Source: Citrobacter sp. Cu233 (GTDB taxonomy: Bacteria > Pseudomonadota > Gammaproteobacteria > Enterobacterales > Enterobacteriaceae). Taken from it: DNA of 64,000 nucleotides. The stretch is taken from positions 1 through 64,000 of the forward strand of contig NZ_JAOWIF010000021.1 of NCBI RefSeq assembly GCF_030332225.1, read 5' to 3'. The translations under genes were made by a program, and so were the position numbers. Positions 4,760 through 32,752 of this stretch are shown piece by piece. The notes under the pieces are model-generated. The model saw only the letters and a program-made list of their open reading frames with translations. It was not told the origin of the DNA and ran no database searches. The number at the start of each line of letters is the position of its first letter. Within the stretch, counting starts at the first letter, position 1.

Positions 4760-6582
<1,823 letters not shown>

Positions 6583-23091: not shown

Positions 23092-23448
23092 ATGCTTTCA
23101 GTCAGGCAAGCGTCGAAGCCTATTGCCTGGGTCGGCCGGTCATTCGATGATTTATGCCGTTTCCCGGAAGAGGTGCGTAAAGACGCAGGGTATCAGTTAC
23201 ATCGTTTGCAGGCTGGCCTGGAAGCGGCAGACTGGAAACCGATGACAGAAATTGGGCCGGGTGTTGAAGAGGTTCGATTACGGCATGTTTGCGGAATTTA
23301 TCGGATTATCTATTTTGCCCGCCTCGAGGATGCTGTTTATGTGTTGCACTGTTTCGGCAAAAAGACACAGCGCGCTTCTGAGCAGGATAAACGTATTGCA
23401 AAAGCCCGTTATCAGGCGGTACAGCAAGAGCTAAGGAAACGAAAATGA
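23092..23448 (+). CDS. Gp49/HigB-like (RelE/ParE superfamily) toxin
   Basis: 118 aa; GIYRIIYFARLEDAVYVLHCFGKKTQRASEQDKRIA matches the phage Gp49/DUF891 HigB-like toxin signature; toxin-first order; ATGA overlap with the downstream HTH gene. Confidence 0.65.
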   Translation: MLSVRQASKPIAWVGRSFDDLCRFPEEVRKDAGYQLHRLQAGLEAADWKPMTEIGPGVEEVRLRHVCGIYRIIYFARLEDAVYVLHCFGKKTQRASEQDKRIAKARYQAVQQELRKRK

Positions 23449-23783
23449 GCCCCTCCATTGATGTCAAAATCCATCACGTGACGCCTGCGGATGCCAATAT
23501 TTTTTCTGAGCTGGGGTTTAGTGGCGAGGAATCCCAACGGCTTTATCAGGATGCCGAACGAGAAGTTGAGCAACTTATTGCGCTTAAACAGCAGCTGATG
23601 CAGGAAATTTCCGTCTGGATTGACGAACACAAACTGAAACAGGCAGACGCCGCCCTGAAATTAAATATCTCCCGACCACGGGTTTCGGATGTTGTGAACC
23701 AGAAAACCAACAAATTTACCCTGGACGCTTTGGTCATGATGCTGGTGAAACTTGGCAAGCCAGTAACGCTGCAAGTGGGTTAG
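23445..23783 (+). CDS. XRE-family HTH antitoxin (HigA-like)
   Basis: 112 aa; C-terminal HTH (QADAALKLNISRPRVSDVVNQK); partner of the upstream toxin. Confidence 0.65.
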   Translation: MSPSIDVKIHHVTPADANIFSELGFSGEESQRLYQDAEREVEQLIALKQQLMQEISVWIDEHKLKQADAALKLNISRPRVSDVVNQKTNKFTLDALVMMLVKLGKPVTLQVG

Positions 23784-24910: not shown

Positions 24911-26491
24911 TCATGTTCCGCAGCGAACGCTTTCCCAGCTCAGTCCAAAACGGGCGAGATATTTTCGCAGGCGATCGGCATCGTTAGGATTGGCTTTTTT
25001 CTGCCGCGAAACGGCAAACAGTTCGCGTCCGGCTTCCGACAGCGACGCACAGCGGCGGCACACTTCCAGCACCGTTTCTAACTGGCGGCGATCGAACAGG
25101 TCAATGTCCATGTTCAGTTCAGGTTGCGAAGCGGCGATCTGCCAGCTCTCCTTTAACAGCGCAATCTCTTCTTCGACAAGGGATAAGGTGATGCGACCTT
25201 GTTCGGCAAGTGTCGCCATGCGCGCGATGGATGAGCTTAGCTCGCGAAAATTGCCGCGCCATTGCGCCTGTGGGGAGCAGGCAAATGCCAGATAGCAAAC
25301 ACGTGCCTCTTTATCGAAACGGATCTGCGTCTGTTTATTGCTGGAAAAACGTTGCAGTTCATACTCGACGTTCGGGGCGATATCTTCCCGCCGCTGCGCC
25401 AGACCGGGTAGGGCGAAGCTCCACATATTGATACGCGCGTAGAGATCCTCGCGAAAACGGCCCTCAGCGACCCACTGTGACATGTTGCGATGGGTTCCGG
25501 CAATCAGCTGAAAATCGCTGTGTACTTCTTTGTCCGACCCAAACGGGAAAAAGGTTTTTTCTTCAATCGCTTTTAGCAGCATGGCCTGCTCATCCAGCCC
25601 CAACTCGGCAATCTCATCGAGAAACAGCACGCCGCCATCCGCTTCTCGCAGCAATCCGCTACGTGCCGTGAGTGCGCCAGTAAACGCCCCCTTCACATGA
25701 CCAAATAACGTGGACATCGCATTATCGCCGCGTAGGGTCGCGCAGTTGACTGCGACCAGTTTTCCCGCCATCAGATGCCGCGACTGGCGCAGCTGAAAAA
25801 TACGTTTCGCGAGGAAGGATTTGCCCGCGCCGGTAGGGCCGGTCAGCAGGATCGGGTCGGTCGAACGCAGAGCCACCCGCTCAATGCGATCGATCAGTTT
25901 ATTGAACGTGGCGTTGCGCGTATCAATCCCGGCTTTCAAAAAAGAGACCGACTGCTGCTGCTCGCGCTGAAAGCGACTGGTGAGCGTGGCATAGCGACTT
26001 AAATCGAGGTCGATAACCGAGCAGACGCCAGCAGCGACGGCTTCATCAGTAGAACCTTTTGGCGCCGGGCTGGTTTGCAGCAGGCTGGCGGGCAGGTAGC
26101 GCGCTTCCGTCAGCAAAAACCAGCAGATCTGCGCCACGTGAGTGCCGGTGGTGATGTGCACCAGATACTCTTCGTTTTCCGTATCAAATTCATAATTCGT
26201 GGCAAAGTCGAGAAACGCGGCGTAGACCTCTTCAAAATCCCACGGATCGTTAATGGTTACGGTATGCGGGCGGACTTCGGTGTGAGGCGAAAGCAGCACA
26301 ACGTCTTCAATCAATCTTTGCACCATGCTCTCATCGCGTGGCTGGTGGAGGAGTTCCAGCCTGTCGACAGGGAAATCAGGCTGTTGGCATAGCCCAACTG
26401 TGGGGCGCCACTTCTTAAACCGATTGGCTCGCTTGCCGCGTTTATCCAGCACCGTTCCCAGTACGCCAATCACTACCCGTCGCTTCTTCAT
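24911..26491 (-). CDS. RtcR-like sigma-54-dependent transcriptional activator (N-terminal CARF-like domain + AAA+ GAFTGA domain + C-terminal HTH)
   Basis: 526 aa; N-terminus MKKRRVVIGVLGTVLDKRGKRANRFKKWRPTVGLCQQ resembles RtcR CARF; Walker A GPTGAGKS, GAFTGA, Walker B FLDEI; second paralog besides the canonical rtcR locus. Confidence 0.8.
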   Translation of the reverse strand: MKKRRVVIGVLGTVLDKRGKRANRFKKWRPTVGLCQQPDFPVDRLELLHQPRDESMVQRLIEDVVLLSPHTEVRPHTVTINDPWDFEEVYAAFLDFATNYEFDTENEEYLVHITTGTHVAQICWFLLTEARYLPASLLQTSPAPKGSTDEAVAAGVCSVIDLDLSRYATLTSRFQREQQQSVSFLKAGIDTRNATFNKLIDRIERVALRSTDPILLTGPTGAGKSFLAKRIFQLRQSRHLMAGKLVAVNCATLRGDNAMSTLFGHVKGAFTGALTARSGLLREADGGVLFLDEIAELGLDEQAMLLKAIEEKTFFPFGSDKEVHSDFQLIAGTHRNMSQWVAEGRFREDLYARINMWSFALPGLAQRREDIAPNVEYELQRFSSNKQTQIRFDKEARVCYLAFACSPQAQWRGNFRELSSSIARMATLAEQGRITLSLVEEEIALLKESWQIAASQPELNMDIDLFDRRQLETVLEVCRRCASLSEAGRELFAVSRQKKANPNDADRLRKYLARFGLSWESVRCGT

Positions 26492-26626
26492 GGTTTATCC
26501 AAAAAGATAAATAAGAGAATAAAAGATAAAAAATTTAACCCATCAAGACAATCGTCATTATTGGTGGAGGTAATTTAAATAATAAAAATCAATTAATTAA
26601 AAATTAATTATGCCAATGTTAATTCC

Positions 26627-26642
26627 TGGCACGCTTCTGGCA
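26627..26642 (+). promoter_or_regulatory. Sigma-54 (-24/-12) promoter TGGCACGCTTCTGGCA driving the SPFH/NTase operon
   Basis: Matches TGGCAC-N5-TTGCA at GG/GC with correct 12-nt spacing; lies between the divergent rtcR-like gene and the operon; preceded by an AT-rich stretch at 26500–26620. Confidence 0.55.
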
Positions 26643-26939
26643 ATAACACTTTAGTCAATCACGCTGAAAGCGCAGGGGGTTAAACCCCGCCGGCACGTCA
26701 GGAACTGCACAGGCTGTTTTCCGGGAGTGTTCCGTCAGCCGATGACCACCCAACGGGTTCGATTCCCGATTCATTCTCCCAATGAAACTGGTTGTTAATC
26801 ATAGAAATAAAACGGAGCAATGCGCAGTTAGCACGCTCCAGAACAGGCTGCCGGTAAAGATGCCGTGCGACAGGCAAAAGGGAATTCCCCTGCCGCTTCG
26901 CCCCTGCACCCGCGCCTGGCTCACAATAAGGAATAATAA

Positions 26940-28067
26940 ATGATGAAGAAAATCACTATACAAAAAGCGCAGTTAGGTCTTTTATCCCGCGAGGGCGATT
27001 ACTATCAGGCACTGGAAGCGGGTCAGCACCGTTTACCGTGGTTTAACACCCCGGAAGTGCTGATCGTTAATAGGGATGGCAGCGAAGTACCGGAAGCGTT
27101 AGCGGAGTATTTGCGCCGCTTTCAGCCCTCCTGGGTGGAACGTTACTGCCTGGTCGCGGATACGACGGACACCGAAGCCGGGGCGCTGTATGTCAATGGC
27201 GTTTTGCAGGAGATCCTGCCACCGGCAACGCGCCGTCTGTACTGGCAGGCCGATGAGGCACTGAACCTGGTGCGCATGGATACGCGTCAGGTTCAGGTAC
27301 CACCGGACGTTATGAATGCAGTATTACAGCCACGCCGCAGCGGTACAGTAAAAGGCCGTGACGCGATCTTAACGGTGCAGGTTCCGGCGTGGCACGTCGG
27401 CGTGTTGAAAATCGATGGCGAAACCCAGGCGCTGTTGCCGCCAGGATTAACAGCTTACTGGAAGGTAAACCATCTGATTGAAGCGGAAGTCGTTGATACC
27501 CGTTTACAAGTTCTGGAGGTCGGCGGCCAGGAGATCCTGACCAAAGATAAGGTCAACCTGCGTTTAAACCTGGCGGCGAACTGGCGTTACAGCGATGTGT
27601 TGCTGGCTTTTGGCCAACTGACTAAACCGCTGGAGCACCTTTACCGCGAGTTGCAGTTTGCGCTGCGTGAGGCTGTCGGTACTCGAACGCTGGACGAGCT
27701 GCTGGAAGATAAGCAGGTGATTGACGATGTGGTGAGCACGCAGGTGAAAACCCGCATGACGCCGTTTGGTATCGAGGTGGATTCGCTGGGCGTGAAAGAT
27801 ATCGTCCTGCCGGGCGATATGAAAGCCATTTTGTCGCAACTGGTTGAAGCGGAAAAATCCGCCCAGGCCAACGTCATTCGTCGACGCGAAGAAACCGCCG
27901 CGACGCGATCGCTGTTGAATACCGCAAAAGTGATGGAAAACAACCCGGTGGCGCTGCGTTTAAAAGAGCTGGAAACCCTCGAAAGAGTGGCGGAGCGTAT
28001 CGATAAAATCTCGGTATTCGGTGGCCTTGACCAGGTGCTGCACGGTCTGGTGAATATAAAAGGATAA
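26940..28067 (+). CDS. SPFH/band-7 (slipin-like) domain protein, apparently lacking a TM anchor
   Basis: 375 aa; SPFH core about residues 190–330 (ILTKDKVNLRLNL...; coiled C-terminus); AAGGA SD; no hydrophobic helix evident. Confidence 0.75.
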   Translation: MMKKITIQKAQLGLLSREGDYYQALEAGQHRLPWFNTPEVLIVNRDGSEVPEALAEYLRRFQPSWVERYCLVADTTDTEAGALYVNGVLQEILPPATRRLYWQADEALNLVRMDTRQVQVPPDVMNAVLQPRRSGTVKGRDAILTVQVPAWHVGVLKIDGETQALLPPGLTAYWKVNHLIEAEVVDTRLQVLEVGGQEILTKDKVNLRLNLAANWRYSDVLLAFGQLTKPLEHLYRELQFALREAVGTRTLDELLEDKQVIDDVVSTQVKTRMTPFGIEVDSLGVKDIVLPGDMKAILSQLVEAEKSAQANVIRRREETAATRSLLNTAKVMENNPVALRLKELETLERVAERIDKISVFGGLDQVLHGLVNIKG

Positions 28068-28072
28068 GTGAA

Positions 28073-28858
28073 ATGAGCGACAACGGAGTGAATGCCGCGA
28101 TGCGCGAACGGGTGTTTCGCCAGCTAAAAGAAGTGGAGCGGCGCTATAACGTCAAAGTGCTATACGCCTGCGAATCCGGCAGCCGTGGCTGGGGATTTGC
28201 CTCGCCGGACAGCGATTACGACGTGCGATTTCTCTATGTTCATCCCCCCGAATGGTATCTGCGGGTCGAAGCGCCACGAGATGTTATCGAACTGCCGATA
28301 GATGATGAGCTGGACGTGTGCGGCTGGGAATGGCGCAAGGCGCTGGGGTTGCTCAAAGACGCAAACCCGACGCTTATCGAGTGGCTGGATTCGCCGGTGA
28401 TCTATCTGCAGGACGAAGTGGCGGTGTCGGCGTTGAAAACGTTGGTGCCTAAATGGTTTTCCCCGCTACGTGCCCGCTGGCACTACTATTCGATGGCGCG
28501 GAAAAACTTTCGCGGTTATCTGCAGGGTGACGACGTGCGATTGAAGAAGTACTTCTACGTTCTGCGACCACTGTTGGCGGTGCGTTGGGTGGAAGCAGGG
28601 AAGGGTGTGCCGCCGATGCGTTTTGCCGATCTGCTGGTGGGAAGTGAACTGGATGCGCCATTGTGTCAGGAAATCGACGAATTGTTGGCACGCAAACAGC
28701 GGTCAGGTGAGGCTGAGTATGGTCCGCGTCGTCCATTGCTACATGCGTTTATCCGCGCCGAACTGGAGAGAGGAGAAATCCCACCGACGTTACCGGACAG
28801 CCGGGAAGGGGATGCCAGGGAACTGGACAGACTGTTATATGACACGGTGATGCGGTGA
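28073..28858 (+). CDS. Pol-beta superfamily nucleotidyltransferase domain protein
   Basis: 261 aa; GSRGWGFASPDSDYDV (GS-x9-D-x-D NTase motif); starts 5 nt after the SPFH stop, so translationally coupled. Confidence 0.7.
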   Translation: MSDNGVNAAMRERVFRQLKEVERRYNVKVLYACESGSRGWGFASPDSDYDVRFLYVHPPEWYLRVEAPRDVIELPIDDELDVCGWEWRKALGLLKDANPTLIEWLDSPVIYLQDEVAVSALKTLVPKWFSPLRARWHYYSMARKNFRGYLQGDDVRLKKYFYVLRPLLAVRWVEAGKGVPPMRFADLLVGSELDAPLCQEIDELLARKQRSGEAEYGPRRPLLHAFIRAELERGEIPPTLPDSREGDARELDRLLYDTVMR

Positions 28859-28863
28859 AAATA

Positions 28864-28888
28864 CCCGATGGCGTAAGAACCATCGGGC
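28864..28888. terminator. Hairpin between the NTase gene and convergent lysC
   Basis: CCCGATGG-cgtaagaa-CCATCGGG; the U-run is on the minus-strand (lysC) side (TATTTTCACC). Confidence 0.45.
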
Positions 28889-28900
28889 GTTGACTTCTAC

Positions 28901-30250
28901 TTATTCAAACAAATTGTGGTGCAGCTTCTGGACGACCAACTCGGCTTCGGCGCCCGGGACCAGGAAGCACAGGTTATGGCTGGATGCGCCGTAGCAAATC
29001 ATGCGAATGTTAAATGGCTCCAGTACACCGAACACCTCTTTGCCTACGCCACAGGCTTTTGACAGGTCATTACCAATCAGCGCGACCAGCGCCAGACCTT
29101 CTTCAACTTCAACCCGACACAGTGCAGACAGTTCCATCAGCAGAGACTGTGTTAACAGCGTATCGCCGGTGGAGGTGGAGCCTGTGGTGTCCAGCGTCAG
29201 CGCCACGCTGACTTCGGATGTGGTGATCAAATCTACCGAGATATTGTGGCGTGCCAGGATACCGAACACTTCCGCTAAAAATCCGCGAGAGTGCAGCATA
29301 TTCAGGCTATGCAGCGTCAACAGTGTTTGTTTGCGGCGCAGGGCCAGCGCCCGGAACAGCGGTGGATTCGCGGTTTTATTGCACACCAGCGTGCCGCCTG
29401 CTTTGGGATCTTTGCTGGAGCCAACAAATACCGGAATATCGCTACGTACGGCAGGTAACAGGGTTGCCGGGTGCAGGACTTTCGCACCGAAGGTGGCCAT
29501 TTCCGCGGCCTCTTCGAAGGCAATCTCATCGATACGCTGCGCTGCGGGAACAACGCGTGGATCGGTCGTGTAAATGCCGGGAACATCGGTCCAGATATCG
29601 ACGCGCGTTGCGTGCAGCGCTTCGGCCAGCAGGGCTGCTGTATAATCGCTGCCGCCGCGTCCCAGTGTGGTGGTGCGGCCTTTGCTTTCGCTACCGATAA
29701 AGCCCTGAGTAATGACCAGACCTTCGCTTAACCGCGGGGCAAGCTGGATGGCTGCCAGTTCGGCCAGCGCCGCTACATCTGGCTCAGCACGACCAAAGCG
29801 ATCGTTGGTGCGCATCACTTTGCGTACATCAAACCATTGGGCCTGAACGTTACGCTCGCGCAGGATCTCAACAAACAGCAGGGTAGACATCAGTTCACCG
29901 TGGCTGACCAGTTCATCCGTCAGCGCCGTGGAGGTAGCCAGTGAGGCCGCCTCGGCCAGCGTAGTGATGTTTTCCAGCAGACGCTCAATTTCTTCGCGGA
30001 TCACGTTCGGATAACGCAGGCGTTCCAGAATATTGAACTGAATTTGACGAATGGCGTCGAGTTTCTCGAAGCGCTCAGTCGGCTCCAGCCCTTCTGCCAG
30101 TGCAACCAGGAGATTGGTAATGCCTGCTGAAGCGGAAAGCACCACTAAGCGGACGTTAGTATCGGAAAGTACGACATCCGCGCTGCGATTCATGGCGTCA
30201 AAATCCGCCACGCTGGTACCACCAAACTTGGAGACAACTACATCAGTCAT
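28901..30250 (-). CDS. lysC: Lysine-sensitive aspartokinase III
   Basis: 449 aa MTDVVVSKFGGTSVADFDAMNRSA... Confidence 0.95.
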   Translation of the reverse strand: MTDVVVSKFGGTSVADFDAMNRSADVVLSDTNVRLVVLSASAGITNLLVALAEGLEPTERFEKLDAIRQIQFNILERLRYPNVIREEIERLLENITTLAEAASLATSTALTDELVSHGELMSTLLFVEILRERNVQAQWFDVRKVMRTNDRFGRAEPDVAALAELAAIQLAPRLSEGLVITQGFIGSESKGRTTTLGRGGSDYTAALLAEALHATRVDIWTDVPGIYTTDPRVVPAAQRIDEIAFEEAAEMATFGAKVLHPATLLPAVRSDIPVFVGSSKDPKAGGTLVCNKTANPPLFRALALRRKQTLLTLHSLNMLHSRGFLAEVFGILARHNISVDLITTSEVSVALTLDTTGSTSTGDTLLTQSLLMELSALCRVEVEEGLALVALIGNDLSKACGVGKEVFGVLEPFNIRMICYGASSHNLCFLVPGAEAELVVQKLHHNLFE

Positions 30251-30261
30251 AACTACCTCGT

Positions 30262-30520
30262 GTCAGGGAATAAATAGAGCGACCATGGCACATAAGGCAG
30301 AACAGAAACCGGTGCAGGCGCAAATGCAAATACCGTATTTATAAATAAAATGTGTAGCCTGTACTGTCAACGCTGGGATTATGCGGATTTTTCATGCTGC
30401 ATTAGCGCTGAGTAACAGTGCTTATAACAGCCCTACACGTCATCCTTCAAACTGCCTCTGTGTTGACTGCGCCTGCTCACCTCAGCCACATACTTCAGTA
30501 AACTTCTGGGGACGCACCGG
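30262..30520 (-). ncRNA. lysC 5' leader with lysine riboswitch (L-box), approximate bounds
   Basis: Established: E. coli lysC carries a roughly 300-nt leader with a lysine riboswitch; about 420-nt non-coding gap between lysC and pgi here; motifs not verified by eye. Confidence 0.5.
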
Positions 30521-30623
30521 CTTGTCGCCTTGACGCAGGTTGAAAGATTTTGTGTATATACTTTTTACCCGGGTTCGATGGACACAAGGGCAATGGCATT
30601 AAAACAATCACACTTTTCGGTGA

Positions 30624-32327
<1,704 letters not shown>

Positions 32328-32400: not shown

Positions 32401-32413
32401 GCAAGAATGAAAT

Positions 32414-32445
32414 AAAAAAGCCGATATTAATATCGGCTTTTTTTA
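32414..32445 (+). terminator. Rho-independent terminator (pgi)
   Basis: AAAAAGCCGATA-ttaa-TATCGGCTTTTTTT. Confidence 0.6.
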
Positions 32446-32752
32446 TAAGATTACTCCGGGATATTTACGTTTTTTCTTCATCTTTTAATTGAGCTTAATC
32501 CTAAAATAATTTATTCAACGTTGCTCTATTTCTAATGTTTTCAGATTTACCGGATATTGTGTTTTTTATTATCATATTTTAATTAATTGATTTTAATTAT
32601 TTTTATTATTTGTTGTTAATCATTTTCTCTCTCGTTATCTAATTGTCCTAAATTCCCTCCCGACCTAATTTGCACACTTCGCTTGTGTATACTCGACCTC
32701 GCCCGAAATTCTTTTGGGTAAATCTCCATTCATGCAATGAAGGGAATTTGTG

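Follow-up and report, generated by a model that had tools for sequence, protein, structure and literature searches.

RlaP (RNA ligase-associated or ligase-associating Pol-beta) nucleotidyltransferases (NTases) form a family that Pfam describes as 'RNA repair pathway DNA polymerase beta family' (PF10127; COG3541). The name was given by Burroughs and Aravind (NAR 2016, 44:8525) after the linkage of these genes to RNA ligase genes. Here we describe a family member encoded in a 64,000-nucleotide (nt) stretch of Citrobacter sp. Cu233 DNA (contig NZ_JAOWIF010000021.1, positions 1 to 64,000; hereafter the window), where its gene closes an RtcR-linked operon that has no RNA ligase gene.

The chemistry of the family has been described for PfRlaP of Pseudomonas fluorescens and PaRlaP of Pseudomonas aeruginosa in a preprint by Carruthers, Fatma and Huang (bioRxiv 2025, 10.64898/2025.12.29.696909). 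Among Escherichia coli macromolecules these enzymes labeled RNA alone, with no action on DNA or protein. They required a 3'-OH end, RNA with a 3'-phosphate being no substrate, and added one or two nucleoside monophosphates (NMPs) with little base preference in reactions that favored Mn2+ or Co2+; deoxyadenosine triphosphate (dATP) was also used efficiently in vitro. Both enzymes favored the 5' half of a cleaved-tRNA mimic and partly restored aminoacylation of a tRNA missing one anticodon-loop nucleotide before ligation. The authors proposed that RlaP serves as an antidote to nucleotide-removing ribotoxins such as RloC, and described only 'some' members of the family as ligase-linked. Two further lines of work bear on the regulation and the setting of such genes. 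In Salmonella, tRNA halves with a terminal 2',3'-cyclic phosphate activate RtcR (Hughes et al. 2020, PMC7790460), and in E. coli both RtcA and RtcB bind the CARF domain of RtcR (Kotta-Loizou et al. 2022, PMC9650030). A system composed of a Band-7 protein, a noncoding RNA (ncRNA) called b7a-tRNA and RtcB was predicted by Burroughs and Aravind (NAR 2016, 44:8525) according to Wang et al. (10.1101/312249), where the passages used here describe b7a-tRNA as strongly resembling authentic tRNA and as unvalidated.

The product of the gene studied here is, with near certainty, an intact member of the RlaP family. Its 261 amino acids (aa) matched PF10127 with an E value of 3.2e-96 and 322.3 bits (cutoff 23), residues 10–257 spanning profile positions 1–249 of 249, so that the RlaP-like identity put forward in a first-pass annotation of the DNA was borne out by the profile comparison. 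Besides RlaP, Pfam at E ≤ 1 returned a nonsignificant Polbeta match (E 0.19); NCBIfam contains no RlaP model, and PADLOC gave no hit for RlaP or for the SPFH protein encoded directly upstream. Homolog searches with RlaP retrieved at least 7,856 proteins at E ≤ 1e-5 and at least 7,999 at E ≤ 1e-10, widespread in environmental bacteria and jumbo phages. Its profile match, its many homologs, its NCBI record and its low dN/dS mark the open reading frame as a genuine gene. The protein is 92% identical to RlaP of Citrobacter pasteurii, and the window as a whole is Citrobacter-like. The exact protein is already present in NCBI as WP_286627873.1, 'nucleotidyltransferase domain-containing protein [Citrobacter sp. 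Cu233]', and the family is named in Pfam with biochemistry to its credit; the chief gain is the name RlaP, and a probable chemistry, for a protein carrying a generic label. The 90%-identity protein cluster that contains WP_286627873.1 also contains slipin proteins of 374–375 aa and has a 375-aa representative, which is odd for unrelated proteins. At one locus assigned to Citrobacter amalonaticus (L004; L numbers denote related genome loci) the usual SPFH stop is lost, and the reading frame (…AAAGGAGCAGAACGATGA) extends as far as the start of RlaP. The two families may have been linked by gene calls that were fused or resulted from read-through.

The catalytic center was examined in an alignment of 98 RlaP homologs with 41–91% identity (A4). 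The motif GSRGWGFASPDSDYDV lies where the first-pass annotation had placed it, and G36, S37, D48, D50 and D81 were invariant in 98 of 98 sequences, as were W61, Y62, G84, W85, K89, N98, E103, W104, H137, Y138, N145, K158, K159, Y162 and R165; one distant homolog, from a genome locus, carries E in place of D81. By the pattern of the superfamily, D48, D50 and D81 would make up the expected carboxylate triad of a pol-beta-type NTase, and we infer the role of D81, which sits on strand E80–86 of the AlphaFold2 model, from that pattern. The model obtained with the 98-sequence alignment had a mean predicted local distance difference test score (pLDDT) of 93.0 and a predicted template modeling (TM) score of 0.89; with 30 close homologs only, pLDDT was 60 and residues 25–113 fell below 50, and the diverse alignment remedied the core.

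The model consists of an alpha/beta NTase core (approximately residues 8–113), a helical domain (115–233) and a final helix (248–260). The approximately 210 residues after the motif are almost all helical, in keeping with the pol-beta core and long helical C-terminal extension described in the first-pass annotation. A phmmer search against all Protein Data Bank sequences found none at E ≤ 1. Foldseek placed two chains of ANT(4') kanamycin NTase (KNTase; 6un8 and 1kny) at the top, with E 2e-5, TM scores of 0.44–0.46 and 12–13% identity, and listed uncharacterized 3c18, Hailong HalB, AadA, AAD(9), GlnE, LinB and ANT(4')-IIb as other structural relatives; judged from the model, the nearest solved structures are fold-level relatives only. 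A HEPN-like helical domain is known for KNTase, and with KNTase among the structural neighbors, the helical domain of RlaP looks HEPN-like as well. The 98 sequences showed no conserved Rx4-6H in this domain. Two literal matches are present, R52–H57 within the NTase core and an unconserved one at R219–H224 (60 of the 98 sequences have the R and 36 the H); the earlier statement that an obvious HEPN Rx4-6H motif is absent is thus true in substance.

The operon runs from promoter through leader and SPFH gene to RlaP, its last gene, and is divergent from rtcR (Table 1). The RlaP start codon follows the SPFH stop by 5 nt, and its ribosome-binding site, AAGGA, is contained in the last codons of the SPFH gene. 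The lysC gene is convergent with RlaP and ends 42 nt past it.

Table 1. Coordinates of the RlaP operon, its regulator and other features of the window
Feature	Coordinates	Strand	Remarks
Gp49/DUF891 protein gene	23092–23448	+	PF05973, E 3.6e-23
HTH_37/XRE protein gene	23445–23783	+	E 3e-16
RtcR, CARF – sigma-54 AAA+ – helix-turn-helix (HTH) activator	24911–26491	-	NF038308 equivalog; divergent
Sigma-54-type promoter TGGCACGCTTCTGGCA (-24 GG / -12 GC)	26627–26642	+	One mismatch to TGGCAC-N5-TTGC
Structured 5' leader or ncRNA, ~290 nt	26650–26939	+	Covariation in 27-sequence alignment A1
Soluble (predicted) SPFH/Band-7 ('slipin family') protein, 375 aa	26940–28067	+	PF01145; first gene of the operon
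SPFH end (…IKG*) and RlaP ribosome-binding site, ATAAAAGGATAA	28056–28067	+	Position of rtcB in related genomes
RlaP-family nucleotidyltransferase coding sequence	28073–28858	+	ATG open reading frame, 261 aa plus stop; PF10127 match
Catalytic motif GSRGWGFASPDSDYDV	28178–28225	+	Residues 36–51; G36-S37, metal carboxylates D48 and D50
D81 codon, inferred third catalytic carboxylate	28313–28315	+	ELDVCGW strand; 98/98 D in alignment A4
Small RNA STnc430 (RF02053)	32407–32568	-	125.9 bits; downstream of pgi

The regulator matched the NCBIfam equivalog NF038308 at 820 bits (cutoff 650), the Pfam families RtcR and Sigma54_activat and the PADLOC model RtcR CARF_AAA_HTH, and is 62% identical to E. 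coli RtcR. The first-pass annotation had placed the NTase downstream of a CARF-gated activator; the activator is a genuine RtcR, encoded upstream on the opposite strand, and one gene, that for SPFH, separates the NTase from the promoter region that the two transcription units share. The 448-nt intergenic region between rtcR and the SPFH gene holds a sigma-54-type promoter, TGGCAC-N5-TGGC at 26627, whose position is kept in related operon-bearing loci; the canonical E. coli rtcBA promoter reads TGGCACGACGGTTGCA. Sigma-54/RtcR control of the operon is predicted from these sequences. In the first gene product, the SPFH domain covers residues 147–318 (PF01145, E 1.9e-24), and residues 1–146 gave no Pfam match. 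No transmembrane segment was found in the SPFH protein (maximum Kyte–Doolittle 19-residue mean 0.99), and it is therefore predicted to be soluble.

The region between promoter and SPFH gene encodes a strongly covarying leader, a conserved structured RNA without an Rfam family. In an alignment of 27 leader sequences (A1), the RNAalifold consensus contained 53 pairs in nine helices, of which 39 pairs showed compensatory changes. Scored on the same alignment from which this consensus was derived, 95.2% of cells were paired, versus 85.1% in shuffled alignments and 41–51% when the partners were slid by one to three columns; the covariation score was 0.409 versus 0.210 for shuffled alignments, and 0 of 500 shuffles reached any of five measures. 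The single-sequence fold was no better than shuffles (z -0.48), so the case for leader structure rests on covariation. The leader has two domains, 26663–26768 and 26816–26917. The first contains a tRNA-type T arm, CGGGTTCGATTCCCG, at 26754–26768. The second has near-invariant blocks (CCGGTAA...GCCG; CAGGCAAAA; TTCCCCTG...TTCGCC...CCGCG) and no obvious likeness to tRNA. Rfam 15, at gathering thresholds and at E ≤ 10, gave no family for the leader, the sole signal being a sub-threshold 15-nt T-loop match to the transfer-messenger RNA model, and ARAGORN called no tRNA in the window, in 42 loci or in 33 leader-bearing loci. The T-loop motif occurs 125–148 nt past the promoter in essentially every SPFH-bearing locus and is missing where SPFH is missing. 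The leader is probably the b7a-tRNA of Burroughs and Aravind or a relative of it. A scan of 26400–29000 for intrinsic terminators found none, and a separate leader transcript is therefore unsupported.

Comparison with 78 related genome loci, with architectures counted over the 64 from Enterobacterales, placed the module in a conserved chromosomal slot, yjbD/panS...lysC-pgi, across many genera. The fullest form, RtcR / promoter-leader-SPFH-RtcB-RlaP, was found at 24 of the 64 loci (for example Enterobacter bugandensis, L016, with a 408-aa RtcB at 4770–5996), and the form of the window, without RtcB, at 18. Eight loci, such as that of Serratia (L048), carry RtcR / RtcB-RlaP without SPFH and the long leader, and three, including E. 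coli, have leader-SPFH-RlaP without an intact adjacent RtcR; the others are partial or broken off by contig ends. Reduced forms include RlaP alone (Escherichia ruysiae and Intestinirhabdus), a truncated SPFH (L015) and a split RtcR (L003).

E. coli carries the SPFH-RlaP pair in 403 of 5,426 complete genomes (~7%), at the same chromosomal position, where the two genes are labeled 'slipin family protein | nucleotidyltransferase domain-containing protein'; counted separately, canonical rtcB is present at the glpR-malT locus in 4,858 of the 5,426. In these ~7% of genomes, represented by strain C11 (L079, 7001–10207) and also by L010, promoter, leader, SPFH and RlaP occupy the yjbD–lysC interval and rtcR is not their neighbor; in C11 a 'zeta toxin family protein' gene is located between RlaP and lysC. 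The sigma-54 promoter is kept (GGCACGCTTCTCGC), which suggests that the E. coli copy may be controlled in trans by the canonical RtcR.

Searches by tblastn with either RtcB query and with E. coli RtcA found nothing within the window. The neighboring RNA ligase gene from which RlaP takes its name is thus missing here and present in orthologous loci of sister species: RtcB, 72% identical to E. coli RtcB at the sister locus, is encoded directly upstream of the orthologous RlaP in the 24 and 8 loci above. RtcB is also encoded near RlaP in Paenibacillus and Burkholderiales, so that the link is old and a loss is the simplest account of the missing RtcB. The gene ends suggest a route. In RtcB-bearing loci, SPFH ends …IKG* with (A/T)TTAAAGGATAA and RtcB ends …VKG* with GTAAAAGGATAA, each end holding the ribosome-binding site for the next gene, so that a direct repeat of ~11 nt flanks rtcB on both sides; the window carries this sequence once, as ATAAAAGGATAA, with RlaP directly after. 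From these sequences, rtcB was probably lost by recombination between the ~11-nt repeats (T/A)AAAGGATAA that end SPFH and RtcB.

On a quick neighbor-joining distance tree of RlaP, the ligase-less form is polyphyletic and nested among ligase-bearing clades; it comprises Lonsdalea/Brenneria, Mangrovibacter, Superficieibacter, the Klebsiella oxytoca group and the Citrobacter clade that includes the window. Two assemblies named C. amalonaticus differ in this respect, L004 being without RtcB and L005 with it. The dN/dS ratio (omega) of RlaP was 0.04–0.19 against orthologs; between ligase-less lineages, at dS up to ~2, omega was 0.03–0.19 for RlaP, 0.064–0.085 for SPFH and 0.042–0.091 for RtcR. The remaining parts of the operon are under purifying selection, and RlaP must therefore be useful without a ligase encoded in cis.

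The reading that we favor, and consider likely, is that the window encodes RlaP-type 3'-end transfer in a ligase-less derivative of the enterobacterial RtcR / leader-SPFH-RtcB-RlaP operon. RNA damage would activate RtcR, and sigma-54 transcription would then yield a leader-SPFH-RlaP transcript. Through a metal site formed by D48, D50 and D81, RlaP would transfer one or two NMPs (or deoxy-NMPs) from nucleoside triphosphates onto an RNA 3'-OH, without a template and with little base specificity, its preferred substrate being broken RNA such as nicked tRNA. Damaged 3' ends may be trimmed or lengthened by RlaP on behalf of a ligase encoded elsewhere; alternatively, the leader RNA and the SPFH protein may be its targets or its partners. 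Repair would be finished by a ligase encoded elsewhere, or by none. By analogy with the Pseudomonas enzymes, we are rather confident that the Citrobacter protein has RNA 3'-end transferase activity; restoration of nucleotides before ligation as its physiological role is somewhat more doubtful than probable.

Several points weigh against this reading. RtcB is encoded neither in the operon nor elsewhere in the window; sigma-54/RtcR control is a prediction from sequence; and the biochemistry of RlaP comes from one unreviewed preprint on Pseudomonas enzymes only. Moreover, the 3'-OH product of RlaP is unsuited to RtcB, which needs a 3'-phosphate or 2',3'-cyclic phosphate, as the authors of the preprint concede (10.64898/2025.12.29.696909), and the repair logic is therefore incomplete even with the ligase present.

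A different job may be considered for the same parts. Together with the leader RNA and the soluble SPFH protein, RlaP could form a self-sufficient unit under RtcR control that does something other than nucleotide fill-in before ligation by RtcB, a proposal that we regard as unlikely. The three could for example assemble into a ribonucleoprotein with the tRNA-like leader as decoy, sensor or substrate: once an anticodon-nuclease-type toxin had cut the leader, RlaP would tag its 3' end, and tagging of the leader could generate or quench an RNA signal read by the CARF domain of RtcR. If so, the repeated clean loss of rtcB, with all other parts retained, would mean that the ligase is a dispensable accessory and that RlaP, SPFH and the RNA are the core.

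RlaP might also be a signal-making NTase akin to Hailong HalB or to CD-NTases, producing a free oligonucleotide or nucleotide messenger to be read by SPFH or by the CARF domain of RtcR, so that the operon would serve sensing or defense instead of repair. The efficient use of dATP by Pseudomonas RlaP in vitro, the persistence of the module without a ligase and the CARF domain of the regulator, a known oligonucleotide sensor, are in line with this idea. It is nevertheless very improbable, as the characterized RlaPs extend RNA 3' ends by 1–2 nt with no report of free products, PADLOC has no hit for RlaP or SPFH, and the module occupies a conserved chromosomal slot (yjbD...lysC-pgi) in many genera and not a variable defense island. 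Membership of RlaP in the CD-NTase or cGAS-like enzymes was considered and rejected.

The first-pass annotation had offered a divergent MNT-type or CD-NTase-like enzyme as an alternative, and neither assignment held up, with no Pfam or PADLOC hits and no conserved Rx4-6H. For an MNT/AbiEii-type minimal NTase, a toxin–antitoxin component that AMPylates a HEPN partner or tRNA, there is accordingly very little room: no separate HEPN gene adjoins RlaP, Pfam gave no hit to the NTP_transf_2 or AbiEii families, and RlaP is about twice the size of MNT, with its HEPN-like part fused as in KNTase. Equally little credence can be given to a decaying remnant, functionless since the loss of rtcB and heading toward pseudogenization. 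The missing ligase and the further reduced forms (RlaP alone, truncated SPFH, split RtcR) would suit such decay, but the reading frames are intact with every catalytic residue present, omega is low for RlaP, SPFH and RtcR between ligase-less lineages at dS up to ~2, the same architecture recurs in 18 species-level loci from at least four clades, and the leader RNA retains compensatory pairs. Finally, an ANT/Lnu-type antibiotic resistance enzyme, which the first-pass annotation had named as the outcome that would overturn its proposal, is the least credible of all: ANT(4') 6un8 and 1kny are indeed the best Foldseek matches and AadA, AAD(9), LinB and ANT(4')-IIb are listed too, yet no ANT or Lnu Pfam match was obtained even at E ≤ 1, the conserved residues of the family are specific to RlaP, orthologs are located in RtcR/RtcB operons and the gene is common among environmental bacteria and jumbo phages. 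ANT/Lnu membership was rejected in the absence of a profile match, the structural likeness being at the level of the fold.

Other features of the window were recorded alongside the operon. The Gp49/DUF891 and HTH_37/XRE genes overlap and lie between yjbD and an SBF-family transporter gene. We take Gp49/DUF891 to be a HigB/RelE-type mRNA-interferase toxin family, and the two genes are likely a toxin–antitoxin pair, ~1.5 kb from the RtcR module. STnc430 is the sole Rfam family at gathering threshold in the 64 kb and is present in related loci too. Upstream of lysC (30251–30671, minus strand), no lysine riboswitch (RF00168) was found at the gathering threshold or at E ≤ 0.01. RF00168 is present in E. 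coli (99.5 bits) and in Kluyvera, Klebsiella (L008 and L013) and Pseudocitrobacter loci (85–91 bits), and an aptamer block of ~250 nt aligned in Pluralibacter and two other loci (L039, L054 and L033). The window lacks the block, as do five Citrobacter and three Enterobacter loci, the gap being clean and the promoter and ribosome-binding-site sides kept; from these alignments, lysC regulation in the aptamer-less genera may differ from the textbook case of E. coli. Upstream of the lysC promoter, between lysC and pgi, an insertion of ~130 nt (~30437–30569) is common to the window and C. amalonaticus L004 and absent from other Citrobacter loci; it resembles the ERIC/IRU enterobacterial repeats (…CCCCAG.AG.TTAC…GGTGAG…TGAAG.ATGACG.GTA…) and may be one of them.

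What makes the locus noteworthy is the recurrence of a ligase-less operon under selection, a covarying leader outside Rfam and an orphan copy in ~7% of E. coli. The Enterobacterales forms of the operon, with RtcB, SPFH and RlaP together, without RtcB, without SPFH or, in that fraction of E. coli, without their own RtcR, amount to natural experiments, and all of them stay under selection. Comparing them could reveal the roles of RlaP, of the Band-7 protein and of the never-validated tRNA-like RNA, and could show how RtcR is activated without an RtcB encoded alongside.

Set against known systems, the locus shares with E. coli rtcR / rtcBA the form of the sigma-54 promoter and a divergent CARF-bearing RtcR, and with the Salmonella rsr-yrlBA-rtcBA operon the presence of tRNA-like RNA, represented there by YrlA. 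It differs from both in having no RtcA, Rsr or RtcB, and it is located at yjbD-lysC, whereas the E. coli operon is at glpR-malT. The enzyme resembles HalB, ANT(4'), ANT(3'')(9)/AadA, DrrA and GlnE in having two domains, with a helical, HEPN-like one after the pol-beta NTase core. The b7a-tRNA system lacks a counterpart here for RtcB, its predicted center, and only the T arm of the ~290-nt two-domain fold is tRNA-like, with no cloverleaf called by ARAGORN; the likeness lies in a Band-7/SPFH protein beside a tRNA-like ncRNA in an Rtc-type locus, the T-loop occurring only where SPFH does. In Pseudomonas the gene order is rtcB-rlaP-rtcA, while the partners here are a soluble SPFH protein and a structured leader in place of rtcB and rtcA. 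The Pseudomonas enzymes PfRlaP and PaRlaP share with the Citrobacter protein the full-length PF10127 match, the same three carboxylates and linkage to an RtcR-controlled operon, and the crystal structure of PfRlaP, compared by its description only, has the same order of NTase core, helical domain and last helix; in PfRlaP that helix packs back on the NTase domain.

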